Assembly (NCBI GenBank): GCA_963842525.1
Contig: CAWJGT010000009.1
Coordinates: 416,001 to 480,000, forward strand
DNA: 64,000 bases
Source: an uncultured Holophagales bacterium
GTDB lineage: Bacteria > Acidobacteriota > Thermoanaerobaculia > Multivoradales > UBA5704
Reading direction: 5' to 3'
The translations under genes were made by a program, and so were the position numbers. This document shows positions 7,652 to 28,845 of the stretch, piece after piece (position 1 is the stretch's first letter; each line of letters starts with the position of its first letter). The notes beneath the pieces are model-generated. The model had not been told where the DNA came from and made no database searches. It saw only the letters and a list, made by a program, of their open reading frames with translations.

Positions 7652-7763
7652 GGTCCGTCTACAACGCGAATGCCTTGGTCGGCAAGAAGGATGCCAACCT
7701 GCGCCGGGGCTGTTGGGCGCCTCCGCATCGAGCAGCAGTGTTATGATCGCGATTATGCCGAAC

Positions 7764-8153: not shown

Positions 8154-9536
8154 TTACTTCAGGCCCTGACGGTGGGGGAGCTGCTCCAGACGCGCGTTCA
8201 GGAAGCGGATCAGGTCGAACGCCTGGCGGCTCTGATCGGCCACCTGCTGGAGCTGGAGCAGCGCCGCGAGCGCCTCGCGGTCGACCCCCAGCGAGGTGAA
8301 GATCGGCACCATCTCCGACACCGACTGCTGGAGCGCCTCCACCTCGCCGAGCTTGAGGTAGACGGCCGCGAGGTCGAGCGAGACCACCGCAGCCTCGTAG
8401 AAGAGGTCCCGCTCCAGGAACCCCTGCCGGGCGCGCAGAAGGGACGCTTCGGCGGCCCGCAGATGCCCCAGGTCGCGCAGCAACTGCCCTTCCTGCCAGC
8501 CGGCGCGCAGCGAGATCAGCGAGTCGTTGAACTCCTTGTAGAGGTCCCGTGCCTCGAAGTAGATCGACAACGCCTGCTCGGGCCGGTCCAGGTCGATATA
8601 GCACCGGATCAGGTTGTGGCAGGCGGCGAGCAGCAGGTGCGGATCTCCTTCATGATCGATGAGCGGGATCGCCTGGTTGAGGATGCGCACCGCGGCCTCG
8701 GTCTCTCCGGAGTAGAGGGACGCGATCGCATTCTGCACCATGGTGCTGGCGAGGGCATGCTCGTCGTCGAGCTCGCGGTAGATGCGCCCGGCCTGGTCCG
8801 AAAGCTCGATCGCCTCGTCGAAGCGCCGCTGGAAGATCCGCAGCGAGGCGGTCTGCTCGAGGAGCCAGGCGCGCAACGGTGGGTCGCCGGTCCCCTCGGC
8901 ACAGAACCGGTGTGCCGTGGCGATGGCCTCCTCGGCCTCGCGCAGGCGGCCGGACACGCGCAGGGCGTTGCCGTGCTGCCGCCAGGCCTGGGTGCCCAGG
9001 TCCGCCAGCTTGGCGGCGCTGCCGGCCGTCGCGACCGAGCACGCCTCCGCGGACAGCCGGGCGAGATGCGCCAGATGGAGCATCCGGGCCGGATTTTCGT
9101 AGCGGGCGGCGTGGCTGGCCTCGATCAGGCGCGCGACGAGCTGCGCATTGGCGAAGCGGCTGTAGCTGCTCACCCAGCGCGCCTGCTCATCCAGAGGCAG
9201 CGGCGCCAGCTCGGCCATCAGCTCCTCGGGCGTGCTCTCCGGCGGCCGTCCCTCGGCAAAGAAGGCGGCCAACGCCTCCTCCGCCGCGGCGAAGGACCGT
9301 CCATACTCATACCCGGCCGATCCAGGATCCCGGTCGGAATTCCGTTCGGAGGGGATGCGGAACAGACGCTCCAGGCGACCGTTGTCCCAGCCCATGGCGT
9401 GCAGCGTCGCCCGGCAGGAGGCACAGCCGGCCAGCAGGTGCCGCAGCAGGCGCGCGTTGCGGGTCGCTTGCACCGGCCGCGACTCAGCCCGCAGGAAGCT
9501 CTCGAGCTCTTCGATGGTCGGATGGTCCGTCAGCAT
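8154..9536 (-). CDS. TPR-like protein with N-terminal Zn-finger-like motif (receptor paralog R1)
   Basis: MLTDHP...RHLLAGCASC, helical repeats, [35 protein letters not shown] before the ATG at 9536. Confidence 0.85.
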   Translation of the reverse strand: MLTDHPTIEELESFLRAESRPVQATRNARLLRHLLAGCASCRATLHAMGWDNGRLERLFRIPSERNSDRDPGSAGYEYGRSFAAAEEALAAFFAEGRPPESTPEELMAELAPLPLDEQARWVSSYSRFANAQLVARLIEASHAARYENPARMLHLAHLARLSAEACSVATAGSAAKLADLGTQAWRQHGNALRVSGRLREAEEAIATAHRFCAEGTGDPPLRAWLLEQTASLRIFQRRFDEAIELSDQAGRIYRELDDEHALASTMVQNAIASLYSGETEAAVRILNQAIPLIDHEGDPHLLLAACHNLIRCYIDLDRPEQALSIYFEARDLYKEFNDSLISLRAGWQEGQLLRDLGHLRAAEASLLRARQGFLERDLFYEAAVVSLDLAAVYLKLGEVEALQQSVSEMVPIFTSLGVDREALAALLQLQQVADQSRQAFDLIRFLNARLEQLPHRQGLK

Positions 9537-9692: not shown

Positions 9693-11021
9693 TCACCCCT
9701 CCTGGTGCCCTCGCAGGCGGTCGAGCCGGGAGACGAGGAAGCGGATCAGGTCGAGCGCGCGGCGCTCGTGAGCGGCAAGCCGGCGCAACTGGAGGAGGGA
9801 CACGTAGAGCTCCCGGTCGACGTGGAGGGCGCGGAAGGCCGCTGCCGTCTCCCCCAGGGTCTGCTCCAGCTCTTCCGATGCGCCCAGGCGGATTTGGATC
9901 CCTGCCAGGTCGAGGGAGATGACCGCCAACTCGTAGAAGAGCCCCCGTTCCTCAAAGCCTCCGCGGGCCTGGCGCAGCGCCACCTCGGCCGCCCGCAGGT
10001 GCCCCAGGTCGCGCAGGATCTGCCCCTCCTGCCAGCCGGCGCGCAACTGGATCAGGGGGTCCTCGACGCTGCAGTACAGGTCCCTCACCTCGGAATGGAT
10101 CTCCAGCGCCCGGTCGGGCTCGCCGAGGTCGATGTAGCAGCGGACCAGGTTGTGGCAGGCGGCGAGCAGCAGGTGCGGGTCCGCCGCCGGATCGATGAGC
10201 GGGAGCGCCCGGTTGAGCAGGCGCACCGCGAGGTCCGCCTCGCCGCCATAGAGCGAGGCGACCGCCCTTTGCACCATGGTGCTGGCGAGAGACGTCCTCT
10301 CGTCGAGCTCGCGATAGATCCGTCCCGCCTCCTCGGCCAGGTCCGTCGCCTCCTGGAAGCGCCGCTGGAAGATGTATAGCGAGGCCGTCTGCTCGCAGAG
10401 CAGGGCCCGCAGCCTGGGATCGCCCGTCCCCTGGCCGCGGAAGCGCTGCGCGGCCGCGAACGCCTCCTCGGCCTCGTACAGGTGCCCGCAGACCCGCAGG
10501 GCATTGGCGACCTGCCGCCATGCCTGGGCCAGCAGGTCGGCCAACCGGGGCGCGCTCCCCGCCGACTCGACGGAGCAGCCCTCCGCGGCCCGGCGCGCCA
10601 GCTCGGCCAGGTGCAGCATGCGGCCCGGATCGTCGTACCGCACAGCTTGGCTGTCCGCGAGCAGGCGGCGGACCAGCGGGGGTGAGGCGAAACGTGGATC
10701 AGCCGCGCGGTGGAGCTGCTCCTCGCGCGGCAGCGCGGCGAGCTCGGCCAGCAGCTCCTCGGGTTGTTGGACCGGAGAGCGCCCTTCCGCCAGAACCTCG
10801 GCCAACGCCCGCCCGGCGGCGGCGAAGGCCTGGCCATAGCCGCGCTCCGACGGCCGCTGGCTCCGGATCTCGATCACGAGCTGCTGGCAGACGGGGCAGC
10901 CGGCCAGCAGGTGGCGGATACAGCGCGCATCGCCGGCCGCGGCCCTTCCGGAGCCCTGGCGCAGAAAGCTCGAAATATCGACGACGGATGCGTGTGGAGT
11001 CGGCATGACGATCTCGGCCAT
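9693..11021 (-). CDS. TPR-like protein with Zn-finger-like motif (R2)
   Basis: [37 protein letters not shown]. Alternative start at 11006. Confidence 0.85.
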   Translation of the reverse strand: MAEIVMPTPHASVVDISSFLRQGSGRAAAGDARCIRHLLAGCPVCQQLVIEIRSQRPSERGYGQAFAAAGRALAEVLAEGRSPVQQPEELLAELAALPREEQLHRAADPRFASPPLVRRLLADSQAVRYDDPGRMLHLAELARRAAEGCSVESAGSAPRLADLLAQAWRQVANALRVCGHLYEAEEAFAAAQRFRGQGTGDPRLRALLCEQTASLYIFQRRFQEATDLAEEAGRIYRELDERTSLASTMVQRAVASLYGGEADLAVRLLNRALPLIDPAADPHLLLAACHNLVRCYIDLGEPDRALEIHSEVRDLYCSVEDPLIQLRAGWQEGQILRDLGHLRAAEVALRQARGGFEERGLFYELAVISLDLAGIQIRLGASEELEQTLGETAAAFRALHVDRELYVSLLQLRRLAAHERRALDLIRFLVSRLDRLRGHQEG

Positions 11022-11063: not shown

Positions 11064-11393
11064 TCAGTACTGGCACCAGGGCCGGGGATTGCCCTGCGGA
11101 TCGATACAGGAGCCGGTATTGGGCACGACGACGATGATGAGACCGCCGCCGGGAGGATCCGTGACCTTCTTGCCGGCCTGCGAGACGGTTCCGGTCAGAC
11201 GTCCCAGGGTGCGTTCGCCGCCAGGCAGCAGGCTCTGGAGCCAGCTCAGGGCCGCATCGAACCAGGACAGGTCGCCGGTGAGGGCGGTCTCTCCGGATGC
11301 GAAGGGGCGTGCGTGAGCGGCGGGGGCGAGCGCGACGAGGCTGAGGATGACGACGACGGCGGCAGACAGACGACAGCACAGAGAATGAGACAT
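11064..11393 (-). CDS. Secreted IDPxG precursor peptide P1 (109 aa)
   Basis: GGAGG RBS, signal peptide ending AHA, WFDAALSWL helix, C-terminus TGSCIDPQGNPRPWCQY. Confidence 0.85.
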   Translation of the reverse strand: MSHSLCCRLSAAVVVILSLVALAPAAHARPFASGETALTGDLSWFDAALSWLQSLLPGGERTLGRLTGTVSQAGKKVTDPPGGGLIIVVVPNTGSCIDPQGNPRPWCQY

Positions 11394-11477
11394 GTTTCCC
11401 TCCCTACATAAAATGCGGTGCGCGATCGCCGCGTCCCGCGAATAGACAGCCTTCAGTAGATTCGCTCTTGGCCTAGT

Positions 11478-11505
11478 AGTGCGGAGACGGGGGGAAACCG
11501 TGACA
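11478..11505 (-). promoter_or_regulatory. Shared bipartite promoter-like motif
   Basis: TGTCAC-N17-GCACT upstream of P1. Confidence 0.7.
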
Positions 11506-11521
11506 CCTCTGTAGCACAACC

Positions 11522-11782
11522 TCAGGAGCCGCACTGGATGGGCTTGCCCTGGGGATCGATGCAGGAACCGGTCGCGTTCCTGACCTCGATCCGCTGTGAC
11601 GGTCCGGCCGGGGAGCTCTTCGGCGCCAGGAGGCCGGCGAGCCAGGACAGCGCCGTATCGATCCAGGTCGCCTCGGACTCCTGGAAACGCTGGGCCCCAG
11701 GTCTGCTCGCCTCTGCCATCGGAGCGGCGAGAGCGGTGAGGAGGACGGCGACGACGAGAGCGCGAGAGATGGAACGGAGCAT
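11522..11782 (-). CDS. Secreted IDPxG precursor peptide P2 (86 aa)
   Basis: AAGGAGG RBS, signal ending AEA, WIDTALSWL helix, C-terminus TGSCIDPQGKPIQCGS. Confidence 0.85.
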   Translation of the reverse strand: MLRSISRALVVAVLLTALAAPMAEASRPGAQRFQESEATWIDTALSWLAGLLAPKSSPAGPSQRIEVRNATGSCIDPQGKPIQCGS

Positions 11783-11873
11783 GTCAAATCCCTCCTTGAG
11801 GATCGAAACCGCAAGAGGCTTGCGGTACGAGATCGCTTCGCCAAGTCCACTAGAGGTGTGGCTCTTCGCCCTC

Positions 11874-11901
11874 AGTGCCTCACTTTCGAAAAACCGTGAC
11901 A
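11874..11901 (-). promoter_or_regulatory. Shared bipartite promoter-like motif
   Basis: TGTCAC-N17-GCACT upstream of P2. Confidence 0.7.
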
Positions 11902-12003
11902 TCCATACAAGGAAAAGAAAAGATGAGAATAGATAAATTGTCATATTTCGGGAGAGAGGCCGAGCCATGGCTTTGAACCATGGCTCGGCAGTTGGTGAAG
12001 CCG

Positions 12004-13311
12004 CTACATGCTGAGGGCGTTGCGGTTGGCCAAAGCCATGAGCTGGCTGTTGAGCGCGTGGATCCTCTCGAGAGCCTGCTGCTCATGGCCGGCCGCCTGC
12101 TGGAGCTGGAGGAGCGAGCCGAGGACCTCGCGCTCGACGCGCAGGGCGCTGAAGATCGGCACCGCTTCGGTCACGGTCCGCTTGAGGTCCTCGAAGCGGC
12201 CCATCCTGACGTAGACCGCAGCCAGGTCGAGGGAGACGAGAGCCACCTCCAGGGCAAGATCCTTTTCGAGGAAGCCCTGACGGGCCGCGAGCAGGGCCGA
12301 CTCGGCGGCCCGTAAATGCCCGAGGTCGCGCAGGATCTGGCCCTCCTGCCAGCCGGTCCGCAGGAGGATCATCGCCGCCTCGAACTGCTTGTACAGATCG
12401 CGCGTCTCGAAGTAGAGCGACTTGGCCTGTTCAGGCTGGCCCAGATCGATGTAGCACCGGATCAGGTTGTGGCAGGCAGCCAGCAAGAGCTGGGGGTTCT
12501 CCTCGGGATCGATCAGAGGGATCGCACGGTTGAGGAGGTGGACGGCTTTATCAATTCGACCGGCGTTGAGCAACGCGATCGCCTGTTGCACCATCGTACT
12601 GCCCAGGCGATGGCTCTCGCCGAGCTCGCGATAGATCAGCCCTGCTTCCTTGGCGATCTCGTCGGCCTTCTGGAATTGGCCCTGGAATGTGCGAAGAGAG
12701 GCAAGATGCTCCAAAAGTCGGGCGCGCAGCGTCGGATCCCCTGTCCCTGCCTTGAGGAAACCCTGCGCCGTTTCGAGAGCCTCCTCAGCCGTTCGCAACT
12801 CAGAACAGACCCGAAGGGCGTTCCCGTACTGTAACCAGCCACGCGCCCGCAGGTCGGCAACCAGCGCTGTGCTACCCGCCTTCTCCGCGGTGCAGGACTC
12901 GGCAGCGAGTCGCGCCAAGCCAGCGAGATACAGCATCCGCTGAGGATCCTCATAACGCTGCAAATGGCTGCGCTTGATGAGCTCGCGCACCACTTCGGGG
13001 TGGGCGAAGCGGCGGTCGCTGGTCACCAGTCGACGCTGTTCCTCTTCGGGACAAGAGGTCAGCTCGGCGACCAGGCTATCCACGGCGTGTTCCAGCGGAA
13101 GCTCGTGTGCGAGAACAGCATCGAGCCGTCTTTCGAGCGCGGCGAACGTCTGCGAGTAGTCGTAAGCCCGAGTCGCCAGTGTTTCCCTGCAGGTAGGACA
13201 GTCTGCGAGCAGATGGCGTATCACTCGTTCGAGCCTCAGCGCATCTCCGGCTTGAGGAACGCCTCGCAAGGATGTTTCAAAATCTACAGCGCTGGGATGT
13301 TCCTCTCTCAT
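12004..13311 (-). CDS. TPR-like protein with Zn-finger-like motif (R3)
   Basis: MREEHP...[37 protein letters not shown]. Confidence 0.85.
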
Positions 13312-13386
13312 GATGCACCTCTTGAGCCATGCGGCCGGCGGCAACGCCGCCGGCCGGTGAGGCGACTTGGCTGAGCCGCCTCTGGA

Positions 13387-13662
13387 CTACGAACAGGGTC
13401 TTGGCTGACCCCAGGGGTCTATGCACGAACCGTAATATCCCTTCTTCTGCTTCACTGTGGCCGCCGATCCCGGCCCTTTCGTCGTGGGCCCCAAGTTCGC
13501 CCTGATCAACCAGCCGGCGACCGCCTGCAACAAGCTCGGTCCTGCTTTTGCCGCCGCGGCTTTGCCCTTGCTGGGCCCAGCCTGCACGCTCGGGACGGCG
13601 AAAACAGTGAAGCTGAAAACGACAGACGCTACAACCACAACCCGGAACATGGAACGCAACAT
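13387..13662 (-). CDS. Secreted IDPxG precursor peptide P3 (91 aa)
   Basis: [15 protein letters not shown]...VQA signal, LLQAVAGWL helix, C-terminus YGSCIDPWGQPRPCS. Confidence 0.85.
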   Translation of the reverse strand: MLRSMFRVVVVASVVFSFTVFAVPSVQAGPSKGKAAAAKAGPSLLQAVAGWLIRANLGPTTKGPGSAATVKQKKGYYGSCIDPWGQPRPCS

Positions 13663-13765
13663 AAAAGAACCCTCCAACGGAAAAGCGGGAAGACACCACC
13701 ACGTCGGCTGTGCTGCCCGCGAAGTACCACCAGGAACTCCAAAGAAATCAGCGCTATACGACCAG

Positions 13766-13793
13766 AGTGTAGCCCCACGAGGAAAGCGGGACA
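13766..13793 (-). promoter_or_regulatory. Shared bipartite promoter-like motif
   Basis: TGTCCC-N17-ACACT, overlapped by a perfect inverted repeat agcgggacatcc-gg-ggatgtcccgct (13785-13810). Confidence 0.7.
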
Positions 13794-13840
13794 TCCGGGG
13801 ATGTCCCGCTGGAGACGGACGGCAGACGCCTTACTTCCGC

Positions 13841-15223
13841 CTACTTGTTGAGCGCCTGGCGGTTGCCGAGGGCCGCGAGGCGACTATTGAGCGCCTGAAT
13901 CCTCTCGAGAGTCTGCTGCTCATGGCCGGCTGTCTGCTGGAGTTGGAGGAGCGAGGCGAGAATTTCACGTTCGACGCGCAACGCTCGGAAGATCGGTACC
14001 GCCTCGGTGATCGTCCGCTGGAAGTCCTCCACCCGGCCCAGCCTCACATAGACCGCCGCCAGATCCAGGGAGACGCGCGCCACCTCGTAGGCAAGATCCC
14101 GGTCCAGGAAGCCCTGGCGCGCAGCACGCAGAGCCGACTCGGCCGCTCTCAGGTGTCCTAGATCCTGGAGCAGTAGCCCCTCCTGCCAGCCGGTTCGCAG
14201 AAGGATCGTCGTATCTTCATCGAAATCCTTGTAAAGGCTCCGGACCTCGAAATAGAGCGACAGGGCCTGCCCGGGCCGGTTCAGGTCGATATAACCCTGG
14301 ACCAGGTTGTGACAGGCGGCAAGCAGGAGGTGTGGGTTCTCCTCGGGTTGGATGCGTGGGATCGCCCAGTTGAGGATGTGGATTCCCCGCTTCGTATCCC
14401 CGGCGTAAAGGGCGGCAATGGCTTTGTGCAAAAGAGAGATCGCAAAGCTATGGCTATCGCCAAGCTCCCGGTAGATCCTCCCAGCCTCGTCGGCGAGGGT
14501 CATCGCTTCCACGAATTTGCGCTGGAATATACATAGAGAGGCCCTCTGTTCCAGGAGCCGTGCCCGCAGGGGTGGATCTCCTGTACCCGCCGCGCAGTAT
14601 CTCCGTGCTACGCAGAGCGCTTCCTCTGCTTCCTGCAATTGGCCGCTGACACGGAGCGAGTTCCCGAAATGGCCCCAGGCCTTGGTCCGCAAGTCAGCCA
14701 GTTTTGGCTCGCTCCCGGCAGTCTCAGGCTGGCAGGCATCTGCAGCAAGTTGCGCCAATCGTGCCAGGTGGAGCATCCTCTGCGGATTTTCATAGCGCAC
14801 GGCGTGGCTATGGTCCACGAGTTGCCGAACCACCTGGGGATGAGCGAACCGAAGATCGTTCGCAGCGAGCTCGCCCTGCTCTTCCTCGGGTCTCGGGAGG
14901 AGTGCGTTGAGCAATGCCTCCAGTGGTTCGGCCAGAGGCATCTCTGCGGCGAAGAATGCAGCGAGGCGATATTCTGCCCCGGCAAACGCGAAGCTATAAT
15001 CATGACCTACTTCATGAAAGAAGCGGTCATTGGCGACCGGTAACAGGAGCCTTTCCAGGCGGCCCTCATCCCATTTGAGCACGAGCAAATGCTTCCAGCA
15101 AAAGGCGCAACTGGCCAGCAAATGACGAACTAGCTCCGTAACGTGCGGAGCACCGCCGGACCGTGAGCCGTGCAGCAGAAAGTCGGTGAGCACCTCTTCC
15201 CGTGGATGATCCTGTTGCTCCAT
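13841..15223 (-). CDS. TPR-like protein with Zn-finger-like motif (R4)
   Basis: MEQQDHP...[45 protein letters not shown]. Confidence 0.85.
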
Positions 15224-15290
15224 GGCAGCACCTCCCAAATTCAACGGCAGGGGAGGCGGCTGAGGTCTTGCAGCCGCCTCCCAGAGTTTT

Positions 15291-15563
15291 CTACATACAG
15301 GGCTTTGGACGTCCGAGCGGATCGATGCACGGCCCAGTCGACTTGCCCTTGGCCGTGGTCGACCTCGGTCCCTTGGGCTTCGGCTTCTGTACAGTGACGA
15401 GATTCCCGAGCCAGGAGAGGGCCGCCTGCAGGAGGCCCGGATCGGCCTTGGCAGCAGAGACGTTGGCCTTGCTGGGCTGCGCCTGCGCAGTGGGAACGGT
15501 GAAAACGGTGAGACTGAGAACGACGGACGCTACAACCACAACCCGAAACATGAAACGCAACAT
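15291..15563 (-). CDS. Secreted IDPxG precursor peptide P4 (90 aa)
   Basis: Signal ending [12 protein letters not shown] helix, C-terminus [16 protein letters not shown]. Confidence 0.85.
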
Positions 15564-15665
15564 ATGACATCCCTCCTTCAGAAAAAGCGGGCAGCCATGG
15601 CCAAGGCGGCCACGCCGCCCGCGGAATCACCAAAGCTCCAAAGAATGATCTGCTTCTGTATACAG

Positions 15666-15693
15666 AGTGTGACAGCCCGGAAAAAGCGGGACA
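15666..15693 (-). promoter_or_regulatory. Shared bipartite promoter-like motif
   Basis: TGTCCC-N17-ACACT upstream of P4. Confidence 0.7.
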
Positions 15694-15821
15694 CTCGTGA
15701 TACCCGCAGAGAGGATTTACTTGTGGCGTATCCTATAGCGAAGCGGGGGATCGGCTCTCCTTCTGGAGTCGATCCCCCCGAGGGGCGCCCGGCGCAGTGT
15801 GTGCACCGCCTCAGGACGGCT

Positions 15822-16085
15822 TCAGGGACAGGGAATCGGTCTTCCCATTGGATCGATACACGGGCCGGTTGACCTGCTCTTGGGAATGGTCACCTTTGCC
15901 CCTTTCTGGCCCTGTCCGCTGGTCAAGTTGATCCAGCCGATAAGCTTTTGCAGTAAGCCAGGATCGGCCTTGGCCGTTGAGCTTGTGATTTTGCTGGGGC
16001 CTGCCTGCACAGTCGGGATGGCAAAAACGGTGAGACCGAGAACGACAGACAATACAACTGCAACCCGGAACATGAAACGAAACAT
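15822..16085 (-). CDS. Secreted IDPxG precursor peptide P5 (87 aa)
   Basis: Signal ending VQA, LLQKLIGWI helix, C-terminus [16 protein letters not shown]. Confidence 0.85.
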   Translation of the reverse strand: MFRFMFRVAVVLSVVLGLTVFAIPTVQAGPSKITSSTAKADPGLLQKLIGWINLTSGQGQKGAKVTIPKSRSTGPCIDPMGRPIPCP

Positions 16086-16186
16086 ATCAATCCCTCCTTA
16101 CTGAAAGCGAACAGCACAGTGTCGCGCCGCCCGCGAACAACCACCATAAGAAAAAGCTACAGAAAATAAATGCTGCTTATCATAGA

Positions 16187-16214
16187 AGTGCCACCCACAA
16201 GGTAAAGTGGGACA
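16187..16214 (-). promoter_or_regulatory. Shared bipartite promoter-like motif
   Basis: TGTCCC-N17-GCACT upstream of P5. Confidence 0.7.
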
Positions 16215-16533
16215 CTTCGCCGCACACGCTAAATATTGATGTTTGCGGCTAAATACAAAGATTTCAAGTAGAATATATTGAAGACTGCTGCCTGGTGGGC
16301 TCGAAAGCCTCTTTCGATTTATAGGCTGTTTGAAGGTCTGGGAAGTTTCTGTCCGGAGTGGAAAAGCGAAAAATAGGAACAAGCTCAGAAATTAGGAGGC
16401 CGCAGATTGGGCGGCAAATGAATCTGAGGCCGCCCCTTCCTGTAGAAATAGGGAACTCGATGAGTCCCGTATCGGGCTCGAGTACGGGCGATGCTGCGAG
16501 GCCGGCAGCCTTGCACCGCTCTGGAAGGACGTT

Positions 16534-17916
16534 CTATTTGTCGAGCGCGCCAGGGTCGGACAGAGCAGCAAGCTGGGTGTTGAGTGCGCTGATCAGCTCG
16601 AGCGCCTTCTGCTCCTGGTTGGCGGCCTGCTGGAGCTGGAGAAGCGAGGCGAGCGTTGCGTGTGGCACACGTAGGGCCCGGAAGATTGGCATCACTTCCG
16701 TGATTGTCCGCTGTAGTTCCTCCACCCGGCCCAAACGCACATAGACGGAGGCCAGGTCGAGAGAGACACGAGCCACCTCATAGGCGAGGCCTCGTTCCAT
16801 GAAGCCTCGGCGTGCCGCCCGCAGCGCCGATTCGGCGGCGCGCAAGTGTCCGAGATCCCGGAGCAGAGTGCCCTCCTGCCAGCCGGTACGCAGCAGGATA
16901 GTCGTGTCCTCCTCAAAGTCCCCGTAGAGGCTGCGGACCTCGAAATAGAGCGACAGCGCCAATTCGGGCTGTTCCAGATCGATGTAGCCCTGGACCAGGT
17001 TGTGACAGGCGGCGAGCAGGAGGTGCGGGTTTTCCTCAGGCTCGATCAATGGGATGGCCTGATTGAGGAGGAGGATTGCTCGCTTCGCATCACCGGCATA
17101 CTGAGCGGCCAGCGCCATCTGAACCATGGTGCTGCCCAGGCTGTGGTTATCACCAAGCTCTCGATAGATATCTCCCGCCTCCTTCGCCTGCGCGGTAGCC
17201 TCCTGAAAACGGCCTTGGAAGATACACAAGGAGGCAGTCTGTTCCAGGACTCGTGCGCGCACCACTGGATCCCTGGTGCCCGCAGCCAAGTACCGCTGTG
17301 CAGCCCGTAGCGCGTCCTCAGCCGGCGCCAATTGTCCAACGATTCTGAGCGAGTTGCCCAAGTACCCCCAAGCTCGGGCCTGAAGGTCGGCCAGCCGGAG
17401 CTCGCTTCCGGCTGTTTCCACATGACAGCGCTGCGCTGCCAACTGCGCCAGTCGAGCCAGATGGAGCATTTTCTTCGGATCTTCGTAGCGAACGGCGTGG
17501 GTCCGATTGGTGAGCTGCCGCACCACTTCGGGATGAGCGAACCGGGGATCGTCTGCAACAAGTTGGAGCTGCCCCTCTTCGGATGCTGCGAGCAGCTCAG
17601 CGATGAGTTCCTCCTGCGCTTGGCTCGGAGGTTGCTCCTCGGCGAAAAAGGCGCCTAAGCGGCGTTCCGCTCCGGCGAACGCAGCGCTGTAAGCCTGGTC
17701 TGCCGCTTGCGGGATGTATTCCGCGGCTGCAGAGAGTTGCAGGAGACGCTCCAGGCGCCGCCCACTCCACCCAAGGCAAAGGAGTTGTTCCCTGCAGGAG
17801 GCGCAGTCTGCCAGAAGATGCCGGATCAGGCGTGCTCTACGAGGGGAGGCCATGGTTTGAGTTCTCAGCAAAAAAGCCTTGAGCTCCGCTCTCGTCGGAT
17901 GATCTTGCTGCTTCAT
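16534..17916 (-). CDS. TPR-like protein with Zn-finger-like motif (R5)
   Basis: MKQQDHP...[45 protein letters not shown]. Confidence 0.85.
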
Positions 17917-18005
17917 GGACGCCCTCCCAAGCTCTACGAAGCGGGGGGTCGACCGCGGTCGATCCCCCGGAGAGAGGTGGTGCGGTGTATGCCGCCCCGG
18001 GGTCT

Positions 18006-18272
18006 TTACGAATACCAACAGGGCCGCTCGCGGCCCATCGGATCGATGCACGGTCCGGTCGAGCTACTCTTGGCCGTCTGCTTCTGTCGTTTCGGCTTGT
18101 TCCCACCGGCCAGGCCCTTCATCCACGCCACGGCAGCCTGCAGCAAGCCGACATCGCTGCTGACCACGGGCTTGGCGCTGTTGGGACGGGCTTGAGCGCT
18201 GGGAACGGCGGCGATAGTAAAACCAAAGACCACGACAGCCACAACTACAACCCGAAACATGGAACGCAACAT
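18006..18272 (-). CDS. Secreted IDPxG precursor peptide P6 (88 aa)
   Basis: Signal ending [12 protein letters not shown] helix, C-terminus [18 protein letters not shown]. Confidence 0.85.
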
Positions 18273-18375
18273 AATTCATCCCCCTACGAAAAGCGGGCTG
18301 ACCCGACCACGGCGGCCGGACTGCCCGCGGATTACCGCCATCAAGAACTGCAAATGAGCGCTGCTTACCAGAGAA

Positions 18376-18403
18376 GGTGTGACACCCGGCGAAAAGCGGG
18401 ACA
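18376..18403 (-). promoter_or_regulatory. Shared bipartite promoter-like motif
   Basis: TGTCCC-N17-ACACC upstream of P6. Confidence 0.7.
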
Positions 18404-18725
18404 CTTGAGCGACACGCCAGTGTTGCCGGGAAGAAAACGCTTTACTTTTACCTTCGCTGACCCCCTGCCGGTTCAATCCCGTCCTCGGCAGAGGACAATT
18501 CGAGACCGACCCAAAGGGGTGTGCCCTGCCTGCCGCGCGTTGCGATTTGCTCCAACCAGCTTGAATCAAAGGGCTTAGCGAGATGCATACCCGTCTATGC
18601 CGGAGGTGGCACACGTCTTGAGATAGGTGGTCGTGCGGCGACCCTGGATACGACCGGAGGCGCCGGATGAGTCGTCGAGCTCCGGGAACTCACCACCAAA
18701 GGGACGGCTCGAAAGGAGACGAGAG

Positions 18726-19109
18726 ATGTTCGGGATCAACAGACAACGAGTTTTCGTCGCCCTCACGCTGATGGTGTTCCTGTTCCTGGGCGCGATGTCC
18801 GCGCAGGCAGGTACCGACACCAAGGGCGCGGACCGCACCGTCAAGGGTGCTGTCGCGGGCGCCGCGGTCGGCACCATCACCCAGATGATCCGGGGCAGGG
18901 ACCAGGGCAAGGAGCTTCTGAAGGGCGCCGCGGTCGGCGCCGCCGCGGGTGCCGCGGTCGGTGCCTACAGTGACTACCGCCAGGAGCGGCGCGCCCGAGA
19001 GGATGACCGCCGGTACTACGACAACGGCCGGTATTACGACCGGTCCTACAGGGAGCCCCGTCCGGCCTCCCGCTACGACCGGGGCCGCCAGCACCGCCGT
19101 CACCGGTAG
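18726..19109 (+). CDS. Secreted glycine-zipper protein
   Basis: Signal peptide, GAVAGAAVG...GAAVGAAAGAAVG. AAGGAG RBS. Confidence 0.75.
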   Translation: MFGINRQRVFVALTLMVFLFLGAMSAQAGTDTKGADRTVKGAVAGAAVGTITQMIRGRDQGKELLKGAAVGAAAGAAVGAYSDYRQERRAREDDRRYYDNGRYYDRSYREPRPASRYDRGRQHRRHR

Positions 19110-19225
19110 GGTCTGGCACGGGCGCCTGGCACGGCGCTTGAAACAAACCAACGATGGATCGGGCCGCCAGGGTGCGTGGGCGAGAGAAAGGGCGGCCCGC
19201 GCCGTTTCCAAAAGGAGTCATCGCG

Positions 19226-19900
19226 ATGAGGACACAACGTATCTACACCATGGGAATTGCCGCGCTCCTCTCGCTCTCCCTGTTGGCGGGCTGCGCCACG
19301 ACCCGCGACCCGTACGTCACCAAGCGGGACCGCACGTGGAAGGGTGGAGCGATCGGCGCCGCGGCGGGTGCCGCCGGAGCCGTTCTGGCGGGGAAGCGCG
19401 AGGCCGACGAGATCCTGGCCGGCGCCGGCATCGGCGCCGTGGTCGGCGCGAGCATCGGAGCCTACATGGACGCCCAGCAGGAGAAGCTGGCGCGCATCCC
19501 TGGCACCACGGTCGAGCGGGTGGAAGAGGACACCCTCCTCCTCCACTTCGACAACGACGTCCTCTTCTCCGTGGACTCTGCCGTGGTCGACTCGGACGGT
19601 CGAACGACGCTGGGGCAGGTCGCTCAGGTGCTGGAGGACTACCCGAAGACCGCCGTCGTGGTCCAGGGCCACACCGACTCGACCGGCAGCGATCAGCACA
19701 ACGAAGAGCTGTCGGAGCGGCGGGCCGAGTCCGTACGCAATTACCTGGCCCGCGAGGGGGTCGATGGCGGCCGGATGACCTCGATCGGCTATGGCGAGGG
19801 ATATCCGGTGGCGAGCAACGACAGCGAGTCAGGCCGGCAGCAGAACCGCCGGGTGGATATCCTCCTCAAGGCCAAGGCCGGCCCGGTGCGCGGGCGGTAG
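19226..19900 (+). CDS. OmpA-family lipoprotein with glycine zipper (YiaD-like)
   Basis: Lipobox LAGC, GHTDSTGS...N..LSERRA.SV, NRRV motif. Confidence 0.9.
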   Translation: MRTQRIYTMGIAALLSLSLLAGCATTRDPYVTKRDRTWKGGAIGAAAGAAGAVLAGKREADEILAGAGIGAVVGASIGAYMDAQQEKLARIPGTTVERVEEDTLLLHFDNDVLFSVDSAVVDSDGRTTLGQVAQVLEDYPKTAVVVQGHTDSTGSDQHNEELSERRAESVRNYLAREGVDGGRMTSIGYGEGYPVASNDSESGRQQNRRVDILLKAKAGPVRGR

Positions 19901-19930
19901 GCACCTCTGTTCAACGGAGACGTCCCCATC

Positions 19931-19958
19931 GCGGCGGGCCGAAGCGCCCGCCGCTTTT
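19931..19958 (+). terminator. Rho-independent terminator
   Basis: gcggcgggc-cgaagc-gcccgccgc followed by tttt after the OmpA gene. Confidence 0.65.
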
Positions 19959-20079
19959 CAATTCCGCCGTACCCTGGCGCAAAGCATTGCAGAAGAAGCG
20001 GGTTGGGAGAGTAGGATGAGGCCCGTCCGGCGATAGCGCAAGGACAGGTCGAAGAACCTACAAGCGAGGCGACCCGGAG

Positions 20080-20484
20080 ATGGCGGACGATCTGGCCCAG
20101 AGGCTGGCAAGGCTGCTCGAGACCTCCCTGCAGGACGCGGGGATCTCCCAGCGCCAGCTCGAGGAGCGTCTGGGGTGGGGCCCGGGGTCCGTGGGCCGGA
20201 TCCTCAAAGGGGAAGCGGAGTGCGAGCCCCGGCAGCTTCTCGAGATCCTCGGCGAGCTTGGCGAGGCGGAGAGATCCCGGCCGGGCCGGGCCGCCCGGAG
20301 GAAGGCGGGCACCACTTCCATGGCCGACGAGCTGCTGGAGAGGTCCAGGCTGCTCGGCTACCGCAGCCAGATTTCGCCGCCGGCGGAGATCCCGGAGCCG
20401 GCCGATCTGGAAGAGACGGTCCGCGCAGCGATCCGTCGAGCCTTTCCGGGTTTCCGGGAAGAGGAGGAGGATGAAAGCGGCTGA
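20080..20484 (+). CDS. XRE-like helix-turn-helix protein
   Basis: GISQRQLEERLGWGPGSVGRILKG. Paralog of 7764..8144. Confidence 0.8.
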   Translation: MADDLAQRLARLLETSLQDAGISQRQLEERLGWGPGSVGRILKGEAECEPRQLLEILGELGEAERSRPGRAARRKAGTTSMADELLERSRLLGYRSQISPPAEIPEPADLEETVRAAIRRAFPGFREEEEDESG

Positions 20485-20547
20485 TGGGCGCGCTGTTTGG
20501 CGATAAGCGCGCAGGCGCCGCCCAGGGGGGCGACGCCTGGTGGAGCA

Positions 20548-21676
20548 TCAGCGGGGGTTCGCGGCGAGGGAGTGTCTCGCCCGGTCGAGGAATCCTGCCA
20601 CCGCATGAAGCAGCTCGAGCTGCGTCTCCGCCTCGGTTTCGAAGGATTCCTTGAGCAGAAGCAACGCCGCCAGCGCCTCCCGGGCGATCCGGCGGGTACG
20701 GAACGTAGCCACCAGCTCTTCGACCAGGCAGCGGGTCTCGAAGGTCTTGCCCTGGCGCAGCCAAACTGCCGCCAGGTCGAGCGAGGCGAGCGCGGCGTGG
20801 TATTCCAAACCGGCTGTCTCAAGCTCGCGGCGCACGTGGGTGAACGCTTCCTCGGCGAGGTCGAGGCGCCCGAGCCCGGACTCGATCCTCCCCTCCAGCC
20901 AGCGCAGCTTGATGAGGTTCACGTGATCGCCTTCCGCGAAATAGACGCGGCGGCTGAGCCGCAGCAACCGCTGCGCCTGCCGGAACCGCCGGCAGTCCGC
21001 CAGGAAGCCGACCAGGTTGTGCACCGCCGAGAGGACCAGCTTCGGGTCGGCGGCCGGCTGGATCATCGCCAGCCCCGCACTGAGCAGAGTGACCGCCTGC
21101 TCGGCGTCGCTGCTGCAGCCGACGAAGACGCCCTTGCTGATGAGAGAGCGGCCGGCGTTGTGCCGATCGCCGTGGCTCTCGTAGATCTCGAAGACCGTGT
21201 CCAGCAATCCGAGCGCCTCGCTCATCCGGCGTTGGCCGCCGCGCAGGGACGCAGTGAGGTCCATGACGCGCGCGAGGAGCAGGGGGTCCCGCGTGCCGCG
21301 GGAAGCTCCACTCGACGGCGCTGCGCATGGCCCGCTCGGCGGACTCGTAGTCGTCGGCCACGCGGTAGGCGTTCGCCAGCTCCGCCAGGGCACGCGCCCG
21401 CAGATCGGCGGTCAGCTCGGGACCGTACTCCAGCGGATCGAGCTCCTCGGCCACCGAGACGGCCCTCTCGGCGAGGAGGACCATCCGCTCCGGAGCGTCA
21501 TAGCGGCAAGCCTGGCTGCGGGCGATCAGAGATTCGCACAGGCCCCACTTTTGGATCCCGCAACGATTCCAGGGGGAGGGCTCTCCGAGGCTGGACGGGA
21601 GCTGGGCCCCGGAGAGCTGCTCCGGGTGCAAGTCGTCGGGCATGAGATGGTCGCTCAAGGTCGCTACTCCTTGCAC
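20548..21676 (-). CDS. Divergent TPR-like receptor paralog R6, lacking the Zn motif, frameshift near 21300
   Basis: RYDAPERMVLLAE...DLRARALAELANAYRV continues in a second frame as GTRDPLLLARV...AVHNL...RWLEGRI...SLDLAAVW. Homologous to R1-R5. Confidence 0.75.
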
Positions 21677-21725
21677 AATTTCAGATGCAATTCATGTGCC
21701 TAATAAATTCTTGCTGACAAGGAAA

Positions 21726-22037
21726 TCAGCCGTTGGGGCAGCCGTTCGGGTCGATCACCCAGCCGGCCTCGCATCCGCCGCTGCTGGTCGTGCTGCTGCT
21801 GGTGCCGCCGCCGCTTCCCGGCGCGCTGTCAGCAGCGAACATGCCGGTCAAGCCGGCCCATCTCTCGGTCAGCCAGCTCCATGCCTGGCCGAAAAAGCCC
21901 GCCTCCGACTCGATGACAACAAGAGCCGGGCCACTGCCGGACTCCGAAAGAACGGTTGCATGAACGGTCCCAGCCAGAGAGAGAGCGATGGTAAAAGCTA
22001 CCGCGCTCAGTGTACGGAGGGTGATCTTCCTGCTCAT
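21726..22037 (-). CDS. Secreted IDPxG precursor peptide P7 (103 aa, divergent)
   Basis: GAGGAG RBS, signal ending VHA, FFGQAWSWL helix, Gly/Ser linker, C-terminus GCEAGWVIDPNGCPNG. Confidence 0.8.
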   Translation of the reverse strand: MSRKITLRTLSAVAFTIALSLAGTVHATVLSESGSGPALVVIESEAGFFGQAWSWLTERWAGLTGMFAADSAPGSGGGTSSSTTSSGGCEAGWVIDPNGCPNG

Positions 22038-22138: not shown

Positions 22139-23062
22139 TCAGAAACGAGTACGGAAGAGCGTTCCCGCGGCATGGCTCATCAACAGCCGGAACACGGCGC
22201 TCCGCAGGCTGCTCTTCCCGCGCGGCAGGACGTCGATCTCGGGGTGCGGCTCGCCGAGGAGCACCTCGCGGGCGCGCAGCCGGCCGACCTCCATGGTCTG
22301 GAGGAGGACAGGCCACCGGCGCTCGGTGAAGGTGGCCGGCACGCAATGCCGCGGCCGGAGCACCACGGTGCGCTCGCGATAGGGCGAGGGGATGACGTGG
22401 TTGCAGTCCTGGGGGTTGCGGTAGAGGCCCCCTTCGCTCTCCCCCTTGTGGGTGATCAGGACGACGGCGTCGCACCCCTCCTCGAAGGCCTTCTCATAAG
22501 GAATGTTGTTGGTGAGGCTGCCGTCGCCGTAGCGTTCGCCGCCGATCCGCGGCGCATGGGTGTAGAAGGGCGGGAGATAGTTCGAAGCGAGCAGCAGCAG
22601 GAATGGATCCTCGACCGTCCGCGCCTCGAACACGACCGCTTGCCGGTCCCGCAGCCGGGTGACCCCGACGAAGAGCGGCAGGGCCTCCGGGCGGCACAGG
22701 CGGTCCTCTCCCACGTAGCGGGCGAAGGTGCGGCGGTGCATCTCGGCGAAGCGGAACGGCGAATGCTCGCGCAGCAGGTTGCCCGGGTCCAGGTGGGGCA
22801 TGCGCACGAAGGCGCGCCAGTAGTGGCGGATCCGGTGGAAGCTTCCCGCCGCCAGGGCCGCGCCGTTCCAGGCCCCACCGGAGACCGCCACGCAGAGCGC
22901 CGGCCGGACCCCCAGCTCCAGGAGCGTCTCGATGGCCCCGATCTGGACGGCGCACCGGGCCGAGCCGCCGGAGAGGACGAGGCCCACCTTCCGCGCGGAG
23001 CGGAGGATCGCGAGGGCCTCGCCTTCCGTACTGGTCTCAAGATCCGTCGTCGACACCGTCAT
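22139..23062 (-). CDS. Patatin-like phospholipase
   Basis: LVLSGGSAR oxyanion loop, AVSGGA nucleophile elbow, YGDGSL motif. Confidence 0.8.
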   Translation of the reverse strand: MTVSTTDLETSTEGEALAILRSARKVGLVLSGGSARCAVQIGAIETLLELGVRPALCVAVSGGAWNGAALAAGSFHRIRHYWRAFVRMPHLDPGNLLREHSPFRFAEMHRRTFARYVGEDRLCRPEALPLFVGVTRLRDRQAVVFEARTVEDPFLLLLASNYLPPFYTHAPRIGGERYGDGSLTNNIPYEKAFEEGCDAVVLITHKGESEGGLYRNPQDCNHVIPSPYRERTVVLRPRHCVPATFTERRWPVLLQTMEVGRLRAREVLLGEPHPEIDVLPRGKSSLRSAVFRLLMSHAAGTLFRTRF

Positions 23063-23267: not shown

Positions 23268-23294
23268 GGTGCTTCTCGAAGGGAAAGCGTGACA
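23268..23294 (-). promoter_or_regulatory. Shared bipartite promoter-like motif (N16 variant)
   Basis: TGTCAC-gcttt-N11-GCACC. Confidence 0.5.
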
Positions 23295-23456: not shown

Positions 23457-23729
23457 ATGATCACCCAGGACAAGCGGTCTTCCGAGGGCCGTGTCGAGGA
23501 TCTGCTCCGGCAGGTTGCGACGATCCAGGACGGCGCGGCGGGCAAACCCGTCGCGAGCTTCGAGCTGTGGGTGCCGGAGCGCCTCACGCTGCAGGGGCGT
23601 CGCATCCCCCAGGACGTGGCGCTGGTCGTCCTGCTGGACGCGGCCCTGGAGAAGAAGTTCGAGCCCGCCGGCTTCACCGAGGAGCCGGGAGGCCGGGTCT
23701 ACCGTTACGAGCGCTCCCTCGACGCATAG
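23457..23729 (+). CDS. Hypothetical protein (90 aa)
   Basis: GGAGGGAG RBS, ATG start, GC-rich codon usage. Confidence 0.55.
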   Translation: MITQDKRSSEGRVEDLLRQVATIQDGAAGKPVASFELWVPERLTLQGRRIPQDVALVVLLDAALEKKFEPAGFTEEPGGRVYRYERSLDA

Positions 23730-23862
23730 CCTTCAGGGTCCCGCCTCTCTCTGTTGGAGACCGCGAGCAGCTTCTCGATCGACTCGCGCTCCCGAAGTTA
23801 CGGGGAGAGAAAAGTCCTCGCCTGTCTATGGTGATCGACAGGCGAGGAGTCGCGTCCTGCCG

Positions 23863-23889
23863 TGTCCCGCCTCGCCGCAGGAAAGCACC
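23863..23889 (+). promoter_or_regulatory. Shared bipartite promoter-like motif (N16 variant)
   Basis: TGTCCC-N16-GCACC, 37 nt above the ATG at 23926. Confidence 0.5.
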
Positions 23890-23925
23890 TGTTCTTTTGA
23901 AGGTGCTGACAGAGGAGGTCTCTCC

Positions 23926-24833: not shown

Positions 24834-24852
24834 ACCCGAGGGCCGCTGGCTG

Positions 24853-28777: not shown

Positions 28778-28845
28778 CGCGGCCTCCTGGAAGAACGGTC
28801 GATCGGGCGGGATTGTAGCCTGGGAATGCCGGGTCGCAGAGTAAA

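Follow-up and report, generated by a model that had tools for sequence, protein, structure and literature searches.

Tandem genes for DPxG peptide precursors and TPR proteins, candidate peptide-receptor signalling modules in an uncultured Acidobacteriota bacterium

A DNA stretch of 64,000 nucleotides from an uncultured Holophagales bacterium (assembly GCA_963842525.1, contig CAWJGT010000009.1, positions 416,001 to 480,000), hereafter denominated the window, hosts a tandem array of small genes encoding putative secreted peptide precursors, interspersed with genes encoding tetratricopeptide repeat (TPR) proteins. The seven precursor open reading frames (ORFs) are all located on the minus strand, between positions 11,064 and 22,037, and encode products of 86-109 amino acids (aa). 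All start with an ATG found 5-9 nt past an AGGAGG-like Shine-Dalgarno sequence. The same ORFs had been singled out in a sequence-only reading of the window as precursors of bioactive cyclic peptides; all seven are real, lie where that reading had placed them, and carry exactly the cores that it had listed. Precursor genes (P1-P7) and TPR genes (T0-T5) are given below by coordinates.

8157..9536, minus strand: T0, TPR paralog with putative zinc domain, 460 aa; directly downstream of T1, without a precursor of its own
9696..11021, minus strand: T1, TPR protein with putative zinc domain, 442 aa; 42 nt downstream of P1
11067..11393, minus strand: P1 precursor, 109 aa; predicted signal peptide ending in AHA; core CIDPQGNPRPWC followed by QY
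11525..11782, minus strand: P2 precursor, 86 aa; core CIDPQGKPIQC followed by GS
12007..13311, minus strand: T2, TPR protein with putative zinc domain, 435 aa; 75 nt downstream of P3; invariant H5, H33, C38, C41 and N282
13390..13662, minus strand: P3 precursor, 91 aa; core CIDPWGQPRPC followed by S; predicted mature net charge +8
13844..15223, minus strand: T3, TPR protein with putative zinc domain, 460 aa; 67 nt downstream of P4
15294..15563, minus strand: P4 precursor, 90 aa; core followed by M; predicted net charge +8
15825..16085, minus strand: P5 precursor, 87 aa; core CIDPMGRPIPC followed by P
16537..17916, minus strand: T4, TPR protein with putative zinc domain, 460 aa; 89 nt downstream of P6
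18009..18272, minus strand: P6 precursor, 88 aa; core followed by WYS
20548..21676, minus strand: T5, TPR paralog downstream of P7, in overlapping frames 20548-21393 and 20819-21676; no zinc domain
21729..22037, minus strand: P7 precursor, 103 aa, of a separate subfamily; core CEAGWVIDPNGC followed by PNG; predicted net charge -6; lacks the promoter-like element of the array

The N-termini of P1-P7 feature a basic n-region, a hydrophobic core (maximal 15-residue hydropathy 1.81-2.92) and an A/V-x-A site. Signal peptides have been judged by heuristics, that is from n-region charge, hydropathy and the presence of the A/V-x-A site. In all seven an amphipathic Trp helix, a linker and a C-terminal Cys...IDPxG...Cys loop follow in this order, and the organization originally proposed is seen throughout. 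The predicted mature parts contain exactly two Cys, which enclose 9 residues in P2-P6 and 10 in P1 and P7; their net charge ranges from +6 to +8 in P3-P6, and is 0, +1 and -6 in P1, P2 and P7, respectively. Residues M1, R7, P24 and A28 are invariant in the N-terminal region, and paralogous precursors differ mainly in the core, not in the signal region. No model of Pfam or NCBIfam was matched above threshold by any of 15 precursors (the seven of the window and eight others). One soil DNA sequencing run contains 0.27 of the sampled words of the stretch.

T1-T4 lie on the same strand as the precursor genes, and start 42-89 nt after P1, P3, P4 and P6. T0 follows T1, and T5 follows P7. None of the TPR proteins of the window has a convincing membrane segment (maximal 19-residue hydropathy 1.12-1.65). 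T0, T1, T2 and T4 match Pfam TPR_12 above the cut-off (37.7-45.4 bits versus 30.1), T3 scores below it (23.2 bits). Homologs in public databases, 917 at E<=1e-20 among 8000 scored candidates, are named only "TPR repeat" or "hypothetical".

Sequences fitting the IDP.G pattern are found 254 times in a six-frame translation of the whole genome, and 22 ORFs carry a Cys-flanked IDPxG at no more than 12 aa from the stop. These 22 ORFs have the signal peptide and Trp helix architecture in common, and the IDPxG precursor family exceeds chance expectation. An exhaustive profile search of 1.84 billion cluster representatives retrieved 218 homologs at E<=0.001, 66 of which at E<=1e-10, in line with the notion of a real family of small secreted precursors. 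Motifs have been counted in the best 150 of the 218 representatives, minus one protein of 4529 aa (n=149). A [ILVM]DP.G motif is found within the last 45 aa in 147 of the 149 small homologs, and is bracketed by Cys in 144 of these 147. The bracketed homologs have ring interiors of 5-14 residues, most often of 9 (76/144), and the motif starts with I (121 homologs), V (16), L (8) or M (2). The motif is hence conserved in homologs; the strict invariance of IDPxG and the Cys spacing of 9-10 residues, both stressed initially, are true of the seven precursors of the window, not of their relatives at large. The x of DPxG is hypervariable, as 15 residue types are found at this position among homologs, which fits the specificity determinant that had been supposed to reside there. 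In ten metagenomic homologs of P4 the sequence G-x-C-I-D-P-x-G is invariant, and the second Cys shifts position. Motif and Cys bracket are, from these alignments, under strong conservation in the subfamily represented in the window. P4 homologs are found in public protein sets under the name "hypothetical protein", and the concern that gene callers could miss such ORFs is justified only in part. Searching full-text literature for IDPNG returned no relevant mention.

A broader picture emerges from the 53 distinct precursors found near TPR loci in this genome. DPxG units are present in one, two or three copies in 22, 19 and 12 precursors, respectively; in other words, 31 of the 53 carry 2-3 tandem units, and 20 terminate exactly at ...DPxG. 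A Cys-bracketed unit is found in 30 precursors, and is missing in the remaining 23. N (44), D (21) and H (9) account for most of the x residues. Multi-unit relatives appear, where inspected, rich in acidic residues, with tandem units rich in D and N. The array of the window is a subfamily, in which precursors have one unit only, closed by a putative disulfide bracket, and x is hydrophobic or polar. The idea that a disulfide macrocycle has been selected suits the subfamily, with its 144 bracketed homologs out of 147, and does not extend further: the macrocycle does not define the family, 23 of the 53 precursors being devoid of a Cys bracket.

Precursor genes are linked to TPR genes well beyond the window. 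A hidden Markov model built on T1-T4 identified 103 TPR ORFs in the 9.95 Mb genome, which were merged into 94 loci. Nine of these loci are split across frames, as is T5, probably either a decaying gene or the product of an assembly frameshift. A DPxG precursor is found within 1.3 kb at 60 of the 94 loci, located upstream on the same strand in 41, upstream and divergent in 7, downstream on the opposite strand in 11, and downstream on the same strand in 1. According to a strict criterion (hydrophobic run, Trp and motif), 34 of the 103 TPR ORFs have a precursor-type ORF upstream, versus 1 of 2250 control ORFs, chosen as long and with high GC at third codon positions (GC3); according to a loose criterion the figures are 38/103 and 40/2250. 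The divergence of precursors correlates with that of TPR proteins (rho 0.285 over 44 pairs, equalled by 1 of 2000 permutations; rho 0.258 leaving out the array of the window). This indicates that precursor and TPR genes duplicate as a unit, and does not imply co-evolution of an interface.

The TPR family is present in 38 of 41 related genomes, including all 24 of the same taxonomic family, whereas no match was obtained in three of the families in the order, each represented by one genome. The alternation of peptide and TPR genes is the same in arrays of seven other genomes, which belong to five genera of the same taxonomic family, and peptide-TPR pairs are found also in four genomes from other families of the order. 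The related loci come from metagenome-assembled genomes of Thermoanaerobaculia / Acidobacteriota. In an even sample taken across the phylum, the family was detected at E<=1e-30 in 5 of 301 genomes, all of one order.

T0-T4 and many of their paralogs are extended at the N-terminus. In the zinc-type proteins, H5, H33, C38 and C41 are invariant within the first ~70 residues in 31 sequences, H5 being the invariant candidate for a fourth zinc ligand. Comparable positions of zinc ligands are used by ChrR and RsrA. Among the zinc-type ORFs of the genome, 27 of 32 have the spacing H-x4-C-x2-C, and 5 the canonical H-x3-C-x2-C. The canonical paralog C32 aligns over its full length with the T1-T4 model (E 2.4e-72), and matches zf-HC2 at 34.1 bits, with a cut-off of 22.2. 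In a language-model search with the T2 N-domain, the nearest named clusters were also zf-HC2 (0.77-0.78), a result to be taken as a lead only. The T2 N-domain modelled alone has a predicted local distance difference test score (pLDDT) of 81.6, and its best hit in a sequence profile search of the PDB is an unrelated protein (E 0.056). From the sequence comparisons we conclude that the N-domains of the window are plausibly a variant, with spacing increased by one, of the zinc anti-sigma domain, and are predicted to bind zinc. In other paralogs the N-terminus is an XRE-type helix-turn-helix (HTH); two of these, located on contig C14, have been checked, and pass Pfam HTH_3 (27.9 and 25.1 bits versus 23). 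The 56 near-full-length TPR ORFs of the genome can be sorted by output domain as follows.

TPR ORFs with zinc domain, 27: precursor upstream on the same strand in 18, downstream on the same strand in 1, none in 8
TPR ORFs with XRE HTH, 14: precursor on the opposite strand in 11 (all Cys-bracketed), none in 3
TPR ORFs without N-domain, 15: precursor upstream on the same strand in 11, on the opposite strand in 2, none in 2

TPR sensor and DPxG peptide are constant, while the output domain swaps. No other observation argues as strongly for sensing of the peptide by the TPR, as an HTH joined to a TPR and flanked by a gene for a secreted propeptide is exactly the architecture of RRNPP peptide-receptor systems.

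The likely partner of the zinc-type proteins is suggested by sigma factor genes of the extracytoplasmic function (ECF) type found in some relatives and at two loci of this genome. On contig C34 of this genome an ECF sigma gene, a TPR gene overlapping its end, a precursor gene (...RIDDNG), a second ECF sigma gene and a second TPR gene follow one another. In genomes of other families, which host only 2-4 copies, an ECF sigma gene of the same group is located directly upstream of the best TPR match, and overlaps it, in four of five (G028, G029, G039 and G040; not G030). Genes are ordered as precursor (...GATIDPDG), sigma and TPR in G029, and a precursor-like ORF ending in ...GARIED lies ahead of the sigma gene in G039. 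Three sigma proteins have been checked, one from G029 and two from C34. In all three, Sigma70_r2 is accompanied by region 4, and TIGR02937, the general ECF model, is the only one passed. Given the sigma context of C34 and of the low-copy relatives, the ancestral unit likely included peptide, ECF sigma and anti-sigma-TPR genes, and the large expansions mostly lost the sigma gene. Sigma adjacency was also considered as a general rule, and rejected: the genome contains 47 Sigma70_r2 matches, and these lie within 3 kb of only 5 of the 103 TPR ORFs.

Smaller ORFs have been noticed as well. In this genome, ORFs of 124-126 codons from stop to stop, which match sigma region 2 only, are located between precursor and TPR genes at C6:228851-229231, C32:4563-4937 and C29:24729-25109, and a fourth, weaker one overlaps a TPR paralog on C9. 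Possibly these are either remnants or a small partner of a new kind. A 25-codon ORF with an AGGGGA ribosome-binding site immediately precedes the sigma gene of G028 (locus L090, 2846-3376, minus strand), and its product is a hydrophobic helix that ends in ...GINPYG. This product lacks a signal peptide and is similar to the C-terminal half of the G029 precursor, which may point to a leaderless variant, or to chance.

Each of P1-P6 is preceded by a two-block element, in which (G/A)TGTC(C/A)CG(G/C)TTT and CAC(T/C) are separated by 13 nt. Elements and leaders of the six genes, as well as a stem-loop located in one of the peptide-TPR spacers, are listed here.

11478..11506, minus strand: promoter-like element of P1 (RTGTCMCG(G/C)TTT, 13 nt, CAC(Y)); leader 11394-11477
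11874..11902, minus strand: promoter-like element of P2, two-block pattern; leader 11783-11873
13766..13794, minus strand: promoter-like element of P3, two-block pattern; leader 13663-13765
15666..15694, minus strand: promoter-like element of P4, two-block pattern; leader 15564-15665
16187..16215, minus strand: promoter-like element of P5, two-block pattern; leader 16086-16186
18376..18404, minus strand: promoter-like element of P6, two-block pattern; leader 18273-18375
15251..15282, minus strand: GC-rich stem-loop of 12 bp in the P4-T3 spacer; similar stems in the P1-T1, P3-T2 and P6-T4 spacers

The six sites of the window compare with 0.01 expected by chance, and the element is found in its exact form nowhere else in the 9.95 Mb genome; since the pattern was derived from these same six sites, only its absence elsewhere is informative. 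The element is present in 37 of 102 loci fetched from genomes of other genera, for a total of 41 distinct sites in which spacing is fixed and the sequence of the spacer is free. It is located 112-154 nt upstream of the start codon at the 24 sites for which a start could be assigned. Fixed spacing and free spacer sequence are the behaviour of a promoter, not of a hairpin; a hairpin, or a palindromic operator, was ruled out on the same 41 sites. Boxes of the TGTCAC type are used as -35 sequences by some ECF groups. If spacing is allowed to vary by one nucleotide, 11 sites are found genome-wide, versus 0 for a control with the reversed pattern, and one such site is at an HTH-TPR paralog. In the window, an element with a spacer shorter by 1 nt (23268-23294, minus strand) lies ~230 nt upstream of a gene for a patatin-like phospholipase (22139-23062, minus strand), which suggests that this gene is co-regulated with the peptide array.

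The leaders of P1-P6 contain a GC-rich stem-loop followed by a U-tract that ends shortly ahead of the ribosome-binding site, 15-20 nt before the ATG. Folding z-scores of the whole leaders are unremarkable (+0.46 to -2.57). Stems in leaders and in spacers are candidate attenuators, the latter for read-through into the TPR gene, with folding statistics that are weak.

The AlphaFold2 model of T2 is an all-helical solenoid (pLDDT 89.3, predicted TM-score 0.81). Among the best PDB matches of the model are the eukaryotic LGN (3sf4_C, E 1.7e-6), RapJ with its pheromone (4gyo_A, E 7.3e-6, TM 0.54/0.64), a phage Rap with pheromone (8rst_A, E 5e-5), NprR (5dbk_A, E 7.8e-5) and RapF. Overall, similarity to Rap and NprR spans TM values of 0.41-0.64, and the modelled TPR body resembles in fold these peptide-binding solenoids. 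At the sequence level, a profile search of the PDB returned only generic TPR/PPR matches (Rap105, E 0.0048), and none of the RRNPP models of NCBIfam or Pfam was matched by the TPR proteins of the window. Binding has been modelled for T2 (alignment of 31 sequences) and residues 29-91 of P3 (alignment of 16), along with three controls. The complex scored 0.60 (0.80, 0.01 and 0.60 in the three runs), the best control 0.01. In a benchmark, 58 of 80 solved complexes passed, against 2 of 110 mismatched pairs; passes at <=0.60 come from only 7 of the 80 solved complexes, and from both mismatches that passed. Contacts agree for at least 42% between runs, and the pLDDT of the partner is at least 40. 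The prediction lends weak in silico support to T2-P3 binding, and moves the odds only slightly.

The closest parallel is offered by RRNPP, or RRNPPA, systems (Rap-Phr, NprR-NprX, PlcR-PapR, Rgg-SHP, PrgX, AimR). In these, too, the gene of a Sec-type propeptide is found directly beside that of a cytoplasmic TPR receptor of 250-500 aa, the active part is expected at the C-terminus of the propeptide, which in some instances contains tandem units, families expand to many paralogous pairs, and the N-terminus of the receptor is either an HTH or, as in Rap, a small helical domain that binds proteins. As laid out in the sections of PMC10075063 that define it, the RRNPP signature consists of a small propeptide (10-100 aa), secretion by SEC, a receptor of 250-500 aa, TPRs, and direct adjacency of the two genes. 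P2-P6 measure 86-91 aa, P1 (109 aa) and P7 (103 aa) slightly more than 100; T0-T4 measure 435-460 aa; spacers of 42, 75, 67 and 89 nt fall within the adjacency range (-60 to 400 bp). Overall, the array agrees or nearly agrees with all five features, secretion being judged by heuristics and P1 and P7 being oversized. The same sections describe RRNPP as a feature of Bacillota, and report the application of the survey detector to Firmicutes and viruses only (PMC10075063); the array belongs to Acidobacteriota, and to a presumably diderm organism. Tandem pheromone units in one propeptide are documented for Rap-Phr systems (PMC11343458), a parallel to the 2-3 DPxG units of 31 of the 53 precursors. 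Phage Rap Phr propeptides, as described there, are comparable in that one secreted propeptide holds several putative mature units; sequences are unrelated, and the DPxG turn is invariant here, with a single unit in the seven precursors of the window.

Other traits set the array apart. Receptors of the window type have no detectable sequence relationship to RRNPP receptors, the ligand carries a DPxG turn that is invariant family-wide and often bracketed by a disulfide, the peptide gene comes first, and a single genome hosts ~94 receptors. The output domain is anti-sigma-like, with a putative ancestral ECF sigma partner; to our knowledge, outputs of this kind are absent from RRNPP systems. Most likely, the modules work like RRNPP systems, and are not members of the group by descent or by taxon. 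In turn, the zinc-type proteins recall zinc-binding anti-sigma factors (RsrA, ChrR; zf-HC2 PF13490). Both have a helical N-terminal domain with a His...His-x(n)-Cys-x2-Cys pattern, are soluble and end with a C-terminal sensor domain; one paralog passes zf-HC2, and in relatives the TPR gene is co-directional with an ECF sigma gene and overlaps it. Copies of the window differ for the H-x4-C spacing, for failing the Pfam model and for the lack of a sigma gene in the array, and the TPR sensor and the paired gene of a secreted peptide make an arrangement not found described in the literature searched. Functional coupling of an ECF sigma to a TPR domain is known from ECF42-type sigma factors, in which, according to the part of PMC7826278 that deals with them, the TPR is a C-terminal extension of the sigma factor itself, and no anti-sigma is involved. 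In the present modules the TPR belongs to a protein distinct from the sigma factor, joined there to an anti-sigma-like domain, and the module includes the gene of a secreted peptide.

Taken as a whole, the data are best accounted for, with a probability of about one half, by RRNPP-like peptide-receptor signalling modules with an anti-sigma output, found in one order of Thermoanaerobaculia. This interpretation builds on genes that are real, on their linkage across paralogs and genera, on the domain make-up of the proteins, on the sigma context in relatives and on the conserved upstream element. The adjacent TPR gene, and the context of anti-sigma, HTH and ECF sigma functions, shift the likely role of the peptide from a stand-alone bioactive cyclic molecule, which is only part of the story, to the ligand half of a peptide-receptor module; this context had been overlooked in the sequence-only reading. 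The region would be a tandem array of two-gene modules, each with one or two Sec-exported precursors and, 42-89 nt further on, a soluble cytoplasmic receptor. Precursors would be exported and cleaved after A/V-x-A, and both Cys would be oxidised outside the cytoplasm, closing the loop round a tight I-D-P-x-G turn. The C-terminal part, perhaps further trimmed, would accumulate outside the cell and then re-enter. There it would bind the concave groove of the cognate TPR solenoid, with the DPxG turn docking on conserved residues, and the hypervariable x and flanking residues setting the specificity of each pair. The ligand would then switch the N-terminal output domain. In T0-T4 this may be a zinc-binding anti-sigma-like domain (H5, H33, C38, C41) that holds or releases an ECF sigma encoded elsewhere, in sister paralogs an XRE HTH that would bind DNA directly. 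The promoter-like element common to P1-P6 might enable one sigma factor to drive the array, resulting in auto-induction. A bolder version is put forward more tentatively, and we lean slightly away from it: a pheromone system of a diderm, non-Bacillota organism, made of dozens of orthogonal DPxG peptide-TPR channels with a zinc anti-sigma acting on an ECF sigma, or an HTH, as output, which would represent a new class of ligand-gated anti-sigma factors with RRNPP-like logic, independently evolved. As a corollary, the imported disulfide loop could act on a redox-sensitive zinc-thiolate site of the anti-sigma domain.

Several observations weigh against such signalling modules. A re-imported peptide must cross two membranes, the organism being presumably diderm, as genes for TamA/TamB and OmpA lie next door, and no importer was identified; in the cytoplasm, moreover, the disulfide would be reduced. 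The mature part is less conserved than the signal-peptide region, an unusual finding if the latter serves for export only. No precursor was detected within 1.3 kb at 34 of the 94 TPR loci, and tandem duplication alone would yield the co-divergence of the two genes. Similarity of the TPR fold is generic, the top matches being to eukaryotic LGN, and the T2-P3 prediction is weak, with one of the three runs scoring 0.01. None of 25 N-domains from the proteins of the window and close relatives matches Pfam zf-HC2, the spacing in T0-T4 is H-x4-C and the canonical one H-x3-C, and the modelled N-domain has no specific structural match (best Foldseek E 1.3; best Z 6.0 in a wide VIA-align search, to generic helical proteins). 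The array contains no sigma gene, ~27 zinc-type receptors would have to share ~6 sigma factors of the group found in the modules, and no promoter motif common to the array and to the sigma-containing modules emerged from regular expressions or shared 7-mers. Finally, no RNA run is listed as containing the stretch.

The peptides might instead be secreted effectors under regulation, cationic antimicrobials or bacteriocin-like, with the TPR regulator sensing some other signal. Mature P3-P6 look suited to the role, with a charge of +6 to +8, an amphipathic Trp helix and a Cys loop, and regulators commonly adjoin the genes they control; a dedicated promoter-like element ahead of each of P1-P6, and a T2-P3 binding prediction that is only weak, point the same way. 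Charge, however, is not conserved (0 in P1, +1 in P2, -6 in P7), the multi-unit relatives appear acidic, and the conserved feature is a turn of five residues rather than any amphipathic or cationic character. Neither immunity nor export genes are found near the array. That ~60 peptides each have their own TPR regulator, with a constant sensor and a swapped output, is hard to explain unless the TPR senses the peptide. An effector role as such is regarded as unlikely. The roles of effector and ligand need not be exclusive, and some antimicrobial peptides also act as their own inducers. Re-import and disulfide reduction are avoided if the TPR protein binds the precursor before export, through the N-terminal region or the Trp helix, acting as a chaperone or as a checkpoint coupled to secretion; the anti-sigma would be occupied as long as the precursor waits, and free after export. 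Both proteins are made in the cytoplasm from what seems a single operon, with spacers of 42-89 nt, the signal-peptide region with its four invariant residues (M1, R7, P24, A28) is unusually conserved, and the complex was predicted with the whole post-signal part, which does not distinguish the binding segment. Small Sec substrates, on the other hand, need no dedicated chaperone, paralog-specific variation is found in the core and not in the signal region, and conservation is strictest in the C-terminal DPxG turn and in a Cys bracket of extracytoplasmic type (144/147), as if the functional form were exported and oxidised. We regard a checkpoint as a rather improbable explanation, more so than an effector role.

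Two further explanations leave the TPR proteins with a different task, or with none. The precursors might be those of ribosomally synthesized and post-translationally modified peptides (RiPPs), consisting of a leader and of a DPxG core modified by enzymes, with the TPR protein as scaffold or recognition partner. A conserved N-terminal region joined to a variable core, and the existence of multi-core precursors, would agree with this, and T1 weakly matches the NCBIfam model HaaA_phane_TPR of a RiPP-associated TPR protein (E 1.4e-4, 20 bits). The match, however, concerns generic TPR repeats and is far below the cut-off of 1125 bits, the N-terminal region resembles an ordinary Sec signal and includes an A-x-A site, and the partners carry regulator domains (zf-HC2 or HTH), with ECF sigma genes nearby. 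As neither the neighbourhood of the array nor any of the related loci inspected contains a modifying enzyme, a protease or a transporter, a RiPP pathway seems very improbable. Equally little credit, or slightly less, is given to the view that DPxG units bind calcium, or play a purely structural role, as repeats within small periplasmic or surface proteins, and that TPR genes are functionally unrelated to them. The acidic tandem units rich in D and N would be in keeping with it, as would a faint EF-hand match (E 0.063, 13.3 bits); this was obtained with only one of eight precursors, far below the threshold of 25.4 bits, and a linkage of 34/103 versus 1/2250, which holds across families of the order and across types of output domain, is at odds with unrelated functions.

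Neighbours of the array include genes for TamB, a BrkB-TamA fusion, OmpA, a patatin-like protein, small HTH proteins and an M14 peptidase. The fusion is a single ORF of 958 codons (4940-7816, minus strand), in which a BrkB-like membrane domain is joined to POTRA and Omp85 (TamA-like) domains. It is located directly downstream of the array on the same strand, and upstream of the TamB gene (1068-4946, minus strand). Small XRE-HTH genes (7545-8144 and 20080-20484, plus strand) are arranged tail-to-tail with the TPR genes found at both ends of the array. They were considered as a general third component of the modules, and dismissed as sporadic: of 8 homologs in the genome, 5 are within 1.5 kb of a TPR paralog. 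Another ORF (23461-25068, plus strand) has an HTH-looking N-terminus, a short TPR-like stretch at the C-terminus and an odd GC distribution among codon positions. TPR_12 is its sole match (E 4e-5, below the cut-off); the ORF is possibly what a frameshift has left of an HTH-type paralog. At 5 kb from the array lies the gene of a zinc carboxypeptidase of the M14 type (26882-28942, minus strand, 686 aa), which could trim residues past the second Cys. The GC content of the region spanning P3-P6 and T2-T4 (12000-18000) is 0.59-0.63, versus 0.68 for the genome, and GC3 of these genes is also lower.

No earlier description of a peptide-TPR-anti-sigma system was found in the literature, ECF group tables held in supplements being outside the search. 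The data suggest a large peptide signalling system in uncultured soil Acidobacteria, undescribed in the literature searched. It lends itself to tests with synthetic cyclic peptides of 11-15 residues and recombinant TPR domains, which do not require culturing the organism, and the ~94 receptors of one 9.95 Mb genome offer a natural set of pairs for the study of specificity evolution, and a source of orthogonal signalling parts. If the interpretation is correct, a genetically encoded peptide ligand, acting via a soluble anti-sigma, would be added to the modes by which ECF sigma factors are controlled. Acidobacteriota are among the most abundant, yet least cultured, phyla of soil, and the range of organisms in which peptide quorum sensing is to be sought would widen beyond Bacillota to include them.

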